From a virus, in the UHGV virus genome UHGV-0191547: 26,648 nucleotides of DNA; one strand, given 5' to 3'. Under the pieces are notes generated by a model. It was not told the origin of the DNA. It was given only the letters and a program-made list of their open reading frames with translations, and did not search any database. Positions within the stretch are counted from its first letter, which is position 1; each line of letters opens with the position of its first letter. Both the position numbers and the translations under genes were made by a program. Below, one piece after another: positions 3,370 to 26,300 of this stretch.

Positions 3370-4029
3370 TTAATTCCAGTTGCAAGCGTTTTTTACTTTG
3401 TCGATGTGGTTATAAAGACCATCAATGTTAAACACTGCTTTCTCAATGTCGCCAGCTTCCGGCACTACTTCAATGATAAATTGTTTTTCGTTAACCAGAT
3501 TTTTAATCATTGGGATGGCTTTTTTGTCGTTCCATAATCCAAGAGCTTTATAGTTAGTTGACCGCCCCCATTCAGTGGCTACAGCTTTGTGATCGCCGAT
3601 CCGGTAGTTAATATAAGTAGCGTCCCCGGCGTCAGTTACACGGTGTGACCATGCTACGAACATTTTTGTTTTATTACCCTGGCAAGCAATTGTTAATACC
3701 GGTTTATTATTATCCTGTGCCTTCAGTGCCGGGAAGGCATCAAGACTTCCGCTAAAATGATCTGCTTTCACAAAAAGGAACACGTTTTTTGTGTCCTGCA
3801 TATCATCTTTTCTTTCGACCACAAGCCACTGTTTACCAGCTTTTTCTTTTGCTAACTGTGCCTCATATGCGGCTTGTTTTGCTTGTTGTTCCGCAAGCCA
3901 TTTAGCATTTTTCTCAGCCAATGCTTGTTGTTCTTGAGTGGTCACTATAGGCGCTTTTTCATTATCCTCATTGCAACCAACCAGACCCAATACCGCCGCA
4001 ATCATTGCCACTTTTGCTAACTGTTTCAT
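3370..4029 (-). CDS. Lipoprotein, antisense cargo cassette A
   Basis: 219 aa; N-terminus MKQLAKVAMIAAVLGLVGC is a signal peptide with lipobox L-V-G-C; Ala/Gln/Lys-rich predicted coiled segment after the lipidated Cys. Confidence 0.65.
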   Translation of the reverse strand: MKQLAKVAMIAAVLGLVGCNEDNEKAPIVTTQEQQALAEKNAKWLAEQQAKQAAYEAQLAKEKAGKQWLVVERKDDMQDTKNVFLFVKADHFSGSLDAFPALKAQDNNKPVLTIACQGNKTKMFVAWSHRVTDAGDATYINYRIGDHKAVATEWGRSTNYKALGLWNDKKAIPMIKNLVNEKQFIIEVVPEAGDIEKAVFNIDGLYNHIDKVKNACNWN

Positions 4030-23964: not shown

Positions 23965-23982
23965 TATGGCATCGCCTCCGGT

Positions 23983-25101
23983 TTACATAATGGAATATTC
24001 AGGGTAATAAACAAAGCGCCCAATTTCCCCATGATCCGGGCTGTAAATAATCACCGCTGCCAGACGCCGCGACCGCCAACCGCCATTCGTTGAATAAGCG
24101 TCTTTACCCGCTAATGTGCCGTGATACTCAACAACGCCTAACGATGATTCAATCAGCCGTTGATGATGCCAGTGCCCGCAATGAGCGTAAACCGCCGCAG
24201 ACTTGCCGAAATCCTCACGCCAGTCAGCTACGCAAGCAGACAATAAATTTTCCGGCTTTTTGATAGTGTGCCCGTGGTGGTAAGCAAGGAATGTTTTGCC
24301 GTACTGTGTGTGGTGGACGATAGCAGGGGACACATCAACCGTCACGCGCGGTTCATCTTCGTAAAAAGCCGCCAGCGCCGCGCGTAGCCAAATCATGCCT
24401 GACTGATCGTGATTGCCTGATAACACCTTGATTTCAACATCCTTATGATTTAACAACATCTTTCCTACCGCCCGCCGGACAGACCGGATCGCTACATAAA
24501 CAAGTTTTGCGTAGCGACTATCCTGATCAAGAATGTGCCCGCTTGTTGGTGTAACCGGAACCATTCCGTCAGAATGAAGCAGGTCGCCACCGAGAAGCAA
24601 AACAGCCTTTTCAGACATTGGAGCAGCGCCTACAGCGTAGTCGAAGAAGTCATTTAGCACGCGTTCAGCGATCCCGGTGTCGTAGCTCTCACCGCATTCA
24701 GCTTTATGAGCAAGCGCCCCGATATGCAGATCAAACACCGGATAAAGGGCCAGGCTTTTTTGAAAATCAATTTCAGGCACTGGCACGGCCTCCGCGCGTG
24801 GTATCTCTTCCGTGAAAGCATCGCAAGCCGCTTCCATTAGCATTTCCATTTCATCGCGATCACGGGCTGTTTTAATCCAGCGCATGACTGTATTCCCATC
24901 TTTATCAACAAGAACAGATTCACCAGTAACGCCAAAACCAGGGGCGCGTCGCGTTGATAATAAACCGCGTTTCGCCAGTTTTGCGCCTAGCCGCTCGACG
25001 TTGCGTTTTGACATGCCATATTTTTCAGCAATCTGCTTGTACGTTAAACCGTTGTTATATTCAGCGATCAATTGCTCATCGCTGATTTTTCTTTGCGACA
25101 T
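23983..25101 (-). CDS. Fusion protein: N-terminal helix-turn-helix plus calcineurin-like metallophosphoesterase
   Basis: 372 aa; HTH LTYKQIAEKYGMSKRNVERLGAKL; phosphoesterase motifs DLH, GGDLLH, GNHD, HHGH, GHWHH in canonical order. Confidence 0.6.
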   Translation of the reverse strand: MSQRKISDEQLIAEYNNGLTYKQIAEKYGMSKRNVERLGAKLAKRGLLSTRRAPGFGVTGESVLVDKDGNTVMRWIKTARDRDEMEMLMEAACDAFTEEIPRAEAVPVPEIDFQKSLALYPVFDLHIGALAHKAECGESYDTGIAERVLNDFFDYAVGAAPMSEKAVLLLGGDLLHSDGMVPVTPTSGHILDQDSRYAKLVYVAIRSVRRAVGKMLLNHKDVEIKVLSGNHDQSGMIWLRAALAAFYEDEPRVTVDVSPAIVHHTQYGKTFLAYHHGHTIKKPENLLSACVADWREDFGKSAAVYAHCGHWHHQRLIESSLGVVEYHGTLAGKDAYSTNGGWRSRRLAAVIIYSPDHGEIGRFVYYPEYSIM

Positions 25102-25140: not shown

Positions 25141-26058
25141 TCAGCAAACAATCTCTTTATATGCTTCTTCTACCATGTCGAATACTTCAGACCTGTAATA
25201 AAAAAATTCTTCGCTACCGCTAAATTTTGCAGGAAACTTGATTTTATAATTGCTGAAAGCCTTATGCATTGTGCTTTCTAATTTATACATATTTCCGGTT
25301 GGCCCTTCTAACGTTTTCACGATATGCAAATCAGGAATTCTAATACCTGCTTTATGTGCGCTTTTTAATATATCATTTCTTCGCTTATTCTCCTTAGTGC
25401 TTACACCGATTTTCATTTGTGTAGGTACTTCCAGATCGTCAACCATGATGTAAAGTTTGCCGCGCTCATGTGATAAGAAACCAATTTTTGCACATTTAGG
25501 ACAACCTTTACCCTGTTTTAGGTTGTGAGGTCTAACAGACCATTCATGATCACAAACCTTGCAGCGGCATAATACATTCTTAAAATTACTAGTGATCTCA
25601 CCCAATACTTCAACATCAGGGTTAACCTTTGAGATAGCTAAAACTTGATCTTCATGTGTTAACTTCGTATTTCCAGCGCATTTCGGACAACTGCGCCCGC
25701 GCTTAAGGTGGGCAGGTATAGCAAACCATTCATGATCACAAACCTTGCAGCGGCATAACACATTCTTAATGCTATTAGTGATCTCACCCAATACTTCAAC
25801 ATCAGGGTTAACCTTTGAGATAGCCGTGACTTGTTCTTTGTGTGATAATGTTCTGCTTTGCGCTCGTTTTAGTTTCGCACATTTCGGGCAGCCGCAACCG
25901 TGCTTAAGATTGTTAGGTTTAGCCGACCATTCATGATCACAAACCTTGCAGCGGCATAATACTTTTGTGTCTGTGTTTATTATTTCTCCCAGCACTTCAA
26001 CATCAGGATTAATTTTCGCAATAGCCGCAATTTGTTCTTCGTGTGTTAACTTACGCAT
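25141..26058 (-). CDS. Triple zinc-ribbon repeat protein with C-terminal T5orf172-like domain
   Basis: 305 aa; three copies of VLCRCKVCDHEW...G.GCPKCA about 62 aa apart, then LYIMVDD...KIGVST...FSGSEEFFY resembling the T5orf172 fold. Confidence 0.65.
   Translation of the reverse strand: MRKLTHEEQIAAIAKINPDVEVLGEIINTDTKVLCRCKVCDHEWSAKPNNLKHGCGCPKCAKLKRAQSRTLSHKEQVTAISKVNPDVEVLGEITNSIKNVLCRCKVCDHEWFAIPAHLKRGRSCPKCAGNTKLTHEDQVLAISKVNPDVEVLGEITSNFKNVLCRCKVCDHEWSVRPHNLKQGKGCPKCAKIGFLSHERGKLYIMVDDLEVPTQMKIGVSTKENKRRNDILKSAHKAGIRIPDLHIVKTLEGPTGNMYKLESTMHKAFSNYKIKFPAKFSGSEEFFYYRSEVFDMVEEAYKEIVC
25539..26025 (-). repeat. Three tandem intragenic repeats of 186-201 bp encoding the zinc-ribbon modules
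   Basis: Units start at about 25539, 25725 and 25926; the first two are about 95 percent identical over the first 100 nt. Confidence 0.8.
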
Positions 26059-26198
26059 CGATCCAACTCCTTAAAACGCCTCAGACGCGCTACAACGCAA
26101 AAATCCACCGCGACACCCATTTGCACAGGTTGCAGTGTCTTATTGCGCCAGAGGCGCTATCATGTGGCTAATTTTTGATTTACAGACTGGTAGGTAGG

Positions 26199-26300
26199 TT
26201 ATGGATTGATAAGAAGGAACAAACCGCCGAACAAAGCGACGTTAACAGCGATTGCAGCAGCGATGGCAAAGGCCAGGGCGAAAACGTGTTTACCGTCCAT
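26199..26300 (-). CDS. Possible small hydrophobic peptide (33 aa, MDGKHVFALAFAIAAAIAVNVALFGGLFLLINP)
   Basis: Hand-translated - strand ORF with AGAGAGGA RBS; almost entirely one predicted transmembrane helix. Confidence 0.2.
   Translation of the reverse strand: MDGKHVFALAFAIAAAIAVNVALFGGLFLLINP

Follow-up and report, generated by a model that had tools for sequence, protein, structure and literature searches.

The closest described relatives of the gene reported here are the T5orf172 homing-endonuclease genes (HEGs) of phages, represented by gp174, gp165 and gp121 of ICP1 and by genes of Vibrio phage Helene and of T5-like phages, whose products have fingers of about 60 amino acids arrayed at the N-terminus and a T5orf172 domain at the C-terminus (Barth, Dunham and Seed 2023; PMC10448857). 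Fingers of the CapR, DUF723 or DUF4379 type, often repeated, are present in 87% of the T5orf172 HEGs examined in that study, with six repeats in phage Helene. The repeats exist at the nucleotide level and recombine, ICP1 gp174 having a 228-bp in-frame deletion, and the genes cluster near essential genes. DNA binding by the zinc finger of CapR is cysteine-dependent, and ICP1 possesses putative homing endonucleases in which a CapR domain is combined with T5orf172 (Netter et al. 2021; PMC8096241). The T5orf172 protein Odn has been demonstrated to cleave DNA, an activity that its E180A mutant lacks (Barth et al. 2021; PMC8263062), and three to five CapR-like units precede an EDxHD/Vsr nuclease in a further set of phage proteins (PMC12350094, 2025).

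The stretch of DNA analysed here (26,648 nucleotides of UHGV virus genome UHGV-0191547, hereafter the window) belongs to a mEp021-like (mEpimmI) temperate coliphage from the human gut, in which tail genes and an integrase are followed by an early operon on the minus strand. One gene of this operon is probably a T5orf172-family homing or homing-derived site-specific endonuclease, free-standing, equipped with a three-finger array and carried in a swap-slot cassette. Like the published T5orf172 HEGs, it is a free-standing gene adjoining essential replication genes, its repeats are degenerate, and units are lost in frame (228 bp in ICP1 gp174; 201 and 387 nt here). Unlike them, it belongs to a human-gut coliphage or prophage of the mEpimmI type that is temperate and Nus-dependent, and its slot is shared with antirepressor-type cassettes (PMC10448857).

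The protein shares with CapR of PLE a homologous Cys4 zinc-finger module, Pfam family PF21817 being named after CapR; however, CapR is a transcriptional repressor consisting of a single module without a nuclease domain, whereas the window protein joins three modules to an apparently intact nuclease domain (PMC8096241). As in ICP1 Odn (Gp88), the arginine and the glutamate of the T5orf172 domain are kept, but Odn is targeted by a RepA_N domain and not by zinc fingers (PMC8263062). The CapR-like EDxHD/Vsr fusions of phage group II introns contain similar arrays, with 3–5 units of about 60 amino acids (CapR-, DUF4379- or DUF723-like) and a nuclease of about 100 amino acids, but the nuclease fold differs; relatives of that type are P0080 and P0120, described below (PMC12350094). 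In comparison with I-TevI and other GIY-YIG homing endonucleases, the parts come in the opposite order, the nuclease being C-terminal, the second GIY-YIG motif is KIG instead of YIG, and the DNA-binding part consists of a single module type repeated in tandem. The locus therefore represents no new kind of system, as its architecture, its predicted role and the recombination of its repeats are already published. What is added here is the membership of a temperate gut coliphage group, the sharing of the slot with antirepressor-type cassettes, an exact series of alleles with three, two and one units, and a map of hypervariable positions.

Gene, domains and fold

A single ORF at 25141–26058 on the minus strand encodes 305 amino acids plus a stop codon, and comprises three zinc-finger units followed by a T5orf172 nuclease domain, as identified from the ORF list of the window, Pfam and PHROG 681. 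The ribosome-binding site AAGGAG (26068–26073, minus strand), read from the sequence, lies 9 nt 5' of the ATG. On the same strand, unit R1 occupies residues 4–61 (25876–26049), R2 residues 71–128 (25675–25848) and R3 residues 133–190 (25489–25662), while the T5orf172 domain of GIY-YIG fold covers residues 197–305 (25144–25470). Each unit contains 58 amino acids with the conserved motif CRCKVCDHEW...CPKCA; R2 is preceded by a 9-residue linker (KLKRAQSRT) and R3 by a 4-residue linker (GNTK).

The starts of the units are spaced by 201 and 186 nt, in agreement with the repeat periods of 186–201 nt given in the preliminary description, and TRF returned a period of 201 with a score of 460. The three zinc modules encoded by tandem DNA repeats, as described there, are present, but the near-identity claimed for the first two (about 95%) does not hold: the whole-unit DNA identity is 75% for R1–R2, 75% for R1–R3 and 82% for R2–R3, and 95% is reached only in the best 100-nt segment of R2 and R3. 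The longest run common to R1, R2 and R3 is a block of 34 nt, TTATGCCGCTGCAAGGTTTGTGATCATGAATGGT, which encodes LCRCKVCDHEW and is located at 25539–25572 on the minus strand, with the other copies at 25725–25758 and 25926–25959; this block is a likely substrate for in-register recombination. A protein identical to that of the window (P0003) is encoded on 5 contigs from independent human-gut metagenomes, and the repeats are thus not an assembly artefact.

The zinc-ribbon and T5orf172 domains originally assigned from the sequence alone are both recovered by Pfam. DUF4379 (PF14311, 'probable treble clef zinc finger') matches in three stretches with 66.4 bits (E 2.7e-18), as does the CapR homology domain (PF21817) with 47.3 bits (E 2.3e-12), and each of the three units matches the CapR/DUF4379 treble-clef profile above threshold. 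T5orf172 (PF10544) is found at residues 210–293 with 28.0 bits against a cut-off of 20, and MUG113 (PF13455) at the C-terminus with 23.5 bits against a cut-off of 22.3. Among the PHROGs, the whole protein is assigned to phrog_681, 'endonuclease' (E 1.9e-56), while the repeats alone are assigned to phrog_559, 'HNH endonuclease'. The NCBIfam search of the protein gave no meaningful match, and sequence searches of PDB chains returned only DUF4379 mitoribosome factors of trypanosomes and none for the nuclease domain. The suggested relationship to Bro-N and antirepressor-like proteins is reduced to the sharing of a slot, as Bro-N, KilA-N and ANT/KilAC domains were not found in the protein by Pfam at E values up to 1.

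The AF2 model (mean pLDDT 85.9, pTM 0.47) contains three copies of a helix, a strand, a beta-hairpin zinc knuckle and a short helix, followed by a compact domain. The first cysteine pair of each unit is located in the beta-hairpin and the second at the start of the helix; the four residues C34, C37, C54 and C57 (unit positions) are cysteine in at least 221 of 222 units, and represent the four zinc ligands, one CxxC in the knuckle and one CxxC at the N-terminus of the helix. The linkers between units are modelled with low confidence, which gives a beads-on-a-string arrangement, and because the domains of such a model have no fixed arrangement the whole-protein Foldseek search against PDB was uninformative. 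The C-terminal domain has the GIY-YIG alpha/beta fold. Its residues that are invariant among homologues include Y203, K216, G218, R226, E261, H265 and E284, and R226, E261 and E284 are unchanged in sets of 38 and 22 homologues. By secondary-structure register, we take R226 to be equivalent to R27 of I-TevI and E261 to its catalytic E75, and in the I-TevI register the domain presumably lacks the His/Tyr of the first helix.

Variation and recombination of the finger units

Units were counted with a unit HMM in the best 120 of 1483 homologues (E below 1e-5). In this set, 15 proteins contain 2 units, 49 (the window protein included) contain 3, 44 contain 4, 9 contain 5, 3 contain 6 and one contains 8, and the T5orf172 domain is kept in 117 of the 120. 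The mean identity of units within a protein is 61% at the amino acid level, and for 402 of 420 units the nearest relative belongs to another protein, often at a different position, which identifies the arrays as mosaics and not as recent expansions. Positional orthology of the units was ruled out, since the nearest neighbour of a unit occupies a different position in a different allele. A recent duplication is indicated in mEp021, where units 5 and 6 share 94% DNA identity.

The loss of units can be followed directly in one allele lineage. Removing exactly 201 nt from the three-unit gene of locus L012 gives the two-unit gene of L015, with 2 mismatches in 723, and the deletion junction lies within a 59-nt block common to units 2 and 3. 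Removal of exactly 387 nt from the L012 gene yields the one-unit gene of L017, with 1 mismatch in 537, so that the three loci form a direct 3-2-1 unit series. Together with the alleles of 1, 2, 3 or 6 units found in the slot of the relatives compared, these exact in-register deletions support the earlier proposal that the repeat number varies by recombination. Two one-unit alleles from one metagenome (L018, 4001–4516, and L019, 4001–4501) have frameshifted ends inside the T5orf172 domain, with products of 171 and 166 amino acids versus 178, and may reflect decay of the nuclease or sequencing error.

Across 222 units, 13 positions are hypervariable (24–28, 38, 42–44, 46, 47, 50 and 52) while the scaffold is nearly fixed. 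Nei-Gojobori omega is 0.10 for the scaffold and about 0.9 for the hypervariable positions, the latter value being biased upward by a circular choice of sites, which were selected for their variability. Positive selection at these positions is not claimed, as omega does not exceed 1 and the site choice is circular. Within the KVLCRCKVCDHEW block (unit positions 29–41, in the region 25489–26049 of the window), third-codon positions are conserved in 80–100% of distinct units across alleles, a level above that of most other parts of the unit, which hints at gene conversion or a constraint at the nucleotide level.

The nuclease domain is under purifying selection, its omega of 0.12–0.37 comparing with 0.04–0.15 for the metallophosphoesterase and DnaB encoded downstream of it, and judging from these values the gene is functional but less constrained than the core genes. 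The dS of the nuclease domain is close to that of the metallophosphoesterase and DnaB genes in 7 of the 10 loci compared, and this similarity to the flanking core gene suggests that the gene is a long resident rather than a recent invader. In L012, L015 and L017 the dS is about 1.3, these loci representing a separate allele lineage.

Cassette, early operon and wider family

The gene and its AAGGAG site constitute a presence/absence cassette of 936 nt (25149–26084), the boundaries of which were set by blastn of the window against four isolated mEp phages. In mEp010, which is otherwise syntenic, the slot between the conserved genes is empty, the whole 936 nt are missing and the flanks abut exactly between positions 2747 and 2748 of L003. 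In mEp515 the same boundaries (L004, 2732 and 3495) enclose a gene of 247 amino acids with Bro-N and KilAC/ANT domains (Pfam of mEp515_13), while the slot is occupied by a one-unit allele of 178 amino acids in mEp013 and by a six-unit allele of 495 amino acids in mEp021. In complete E. coli genomes, the slot is occupied by a zinc-ribbon allele in 12 prophages, and in a further eight both flanks match but enclose a Rha, KilAC or BRO gene. In a small sample, the identity of the flanks to the window is no higher in cassette-bearing than in cassette-less phages. At the upstream junction (26074–26084, compared with L003 at about 2745–2760), cassette alleles read AAAACGCCTCAGACGCGCTACAACGC and the empty site reads AAAACGCGCTACAACGC; the 9 extra nt of the cassette-bearing alleles, flanked by ACGC, may represent either a scar of the junction or a portion of a target site.

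On a contig with the identical gene, the gene order is a divergent cI-like repressor, an 84-aa HTH gene, a 350-aa replication initiator, a 33-aa hydrophobic ORF, the zinc-finger nuclease gene, a 372-aa HTH-metallophosphoesterase, DnaB, further genes and NinB. The 84-aa HTH gene at the start of the operon is Cro-like, and the nuclease gene, which the preliminary description placed at the head of the early operon, is actually the fourth, after the Cro-like gene, the replication initiator and the 33-aa ORF. A promoter and terminator scan near the gene yielded nothing over shuffle expectation. NinB is carried by the window phage itself, and Erf is encoded on a contig with the same genotype.

The 33-aa hydrophobic ORF, MDGKHVFALAFAIAAAIAVNVALFGGLFLLINP, immediately precedes the cassette, at 26199–26300 on the minus strand. 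A copy was recognised in 12 of 19 related loci, with 94–97% identity in 11 and 82% in one, and is probably a small membrane peptide. The 372-aa core gene (23983–25101, minus strand) encodes a protein with an N-terminal HTH supported by sub-threshold Pfam matches only and with no Pfam phosphoesterase match; it matches PHROG 704, 'DNA repair exonuclease' (2e-141), NCBI labels its relatives metallophosphoesterase, and it is a conserved replication-module protein of the mEp021-like phage group. Between the phosphoesterase and DnaB genes, mEp021, mEp010 and mEp515 carry an HNH_3 + AP2 endonuclease gene (L001 4577–5080, L003 1041–1631 and L004 1077–1631, respectively), and the window (23965–23982) and mEp013 have only 18 nt between the DnaB start and the phosphoesterase stop. 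This site is a second homing-endonuclease slot. The phosphoesterase gene of mEp021 is thus bracketed by two nuclease genes, an arrangement resembling the 'HEG islands' of Barth et al. 2023 (PMC10448857). Elsewhere in the window, an ORF of 219 amino acids with a VasI (type VI secretion) domain (E 2.3e-14; 3370–4029, minus strand) sits on the opposite strand within the tail-gene module, adjoining the tape-measure gene, and looks like a moron.

Homologues are also present in unrelated genomic contexts and lineages. In a 137-kb contig (L021), a four-unit homologue with 50% identity is flanked by the tail tube and tail chaperone genes. A tblastn search placed homologues in 339 phage records; the hosts belong to many genera, among them Salmonella, Escherichia, Klebsiella, Staphylococcus, Enterococcus and Vibrio, and many of the homologues bear annotations such as endonuclease, HNH endonuclease, homing endonuclease or group I intron protein. 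In P0080 and P0120, the same arrays precede a different C-terminal domain, which matches Pfam RAP in P0080 and is provisionally read, from sequence motifs, as Vsr/PD-(D/E)xK-like in both; the arrays are also fused to HNH (PHROG 559). The use of an array by several nuclease types is a hallmark of a nuclease-associated DNA-binding module.

A probable homing-type nuclease and its alternatives

As a homing or homing-derived endonuclease, the protein would bind DNA and set its target with three independently folded treble-clef units, and would cut DNA with the C-terminal GIY-YIG-fold domain. Homing into genomes that lack it, or exchange at the conserved flanks, would keep the cassette in circulation. 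The length of the array, and presumably the target, would change when units recombine homologously in register; the short inter-unit identity blocks probably support such recombination, and the Erf recombinase and NinB could plausibly catalyse exchanges on short homologies. The architecture, the fold, the invariant Arg226 and Glu261/Glu284, the purifying selection, the empty site of mEp010, the unrelated contexts, the arrays on other nucleases and the changes in unit number count for this reading, while the dS close to that of the flanks, with the long residence that it suggests, counts against it. As Bro-N/KilAC and Rha cassettes have the same boundaries, the presence/absence pattern could also be produced by generic cassette exchange and not by homing, and no co-conversion signal was seen, since cassette-less phages match the window in their flanks as closely as cassette-bearing ones do. 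Barth et al. point out that homing cannot be inferred from sequence alone.

A somewhat unlikely alternative, with Odn as its precedent (PMC8263062), sees in the protein a domesticated conflict nuclease that would cut competing phages, satellites or resident prophages instead of spreading its own gene, with evolving targets driving the variation of the fingers. It would fit the alternation of the slot with antirepressor-type conflict genes (Bro-N/KilAC and Rha), the near-neutral hypervariable positions on a constrained scaffold, the shuffling of units between alleles and the apparently long residence of the gene; however, no known defence-system model was meaningfully matched (PADLOC, best E 0.007), and omega does not exceed 1, in an estimate that is circular because its sites were picked for their variation. 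GIY-YIG homing endonucleases such as I-TevI autorepress, and the gene is situated in a regulatory/replication operon, both of which would suit a nuclease-dead DNA-binding regulator with an array that represses or tunes early-operon transcription. The model for such a role is PLE CapR, a domesticated relative repressing a promoter (PMC8096241), but CapR has lost the nuclease domain, whereas here that domain is almost always kept among the top homologues, with its invariant Arg and Glu and under purifying selection, and the gene is dispensable, as seen from the empty slot of mEp010; a role as regulator is accordingly quite improbable.

The preliminary description also suggested that the gene, taken there as the first of the early operon, may act jointly with the phosphoesterase fusion that follows it, the two forming a module. 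As neighbours, this gene and that of the HTH-metallophosphoesterase share their orientation and are separated by 39 nt, and both products plausibly act on DNA, given the 'DNA repair exonuclease' label of PHROG 704, but the nuclease gene is only fourth in the operon. In addition, the metallophosphoesterase and DnaB are present in 19 of 19 related loci with 92–99% protein identity whatever fills the slot, the phosphoesterase itself at 92–97% and including loci with empty or Bro-N/KilAC slots, and neither was found beside homologues in three other contexts (1.4–5 kb of flank on each side). This persistence irrespective of the slot, together with the absence beside other homologues, argues against a functional pair, which we regard as extremely unlikely.

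The homing-type nuclease remains the preferred reading. In a more speculative one, to which we give little credence, the array is a natural modular code of DNA recognition in which the roughly 13 hypervariable positions of each unit read a short sub-site, making the protein a rapidly re-programmable weapon of temperate gut coliphages against competing phages or prophages, carried in a slot that otherwise receives antirepressors. If so, the nuclease would acquire new targets whenever units are shuffled, deleted or duplicated, and L012, L015 and L017, with 3, 2 and 1 units, would be a ready-made test set. Apart from the deletions, the members of this finger series are 99.7–99.8% identical, and they could be used for determining the part of each finger in target choice. 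For a prevalent group of human-gut coliphages, the analysis provides a functional label, that of a probable homing-type endonuclease, for a gene annotated only as 'zinc-ribbon domain-containing' or 'hypothetical', and it brings temperate phages and prophages into the range of the T5orf172 homing-endonuclease family, whose known members come mostly from lytic phages.
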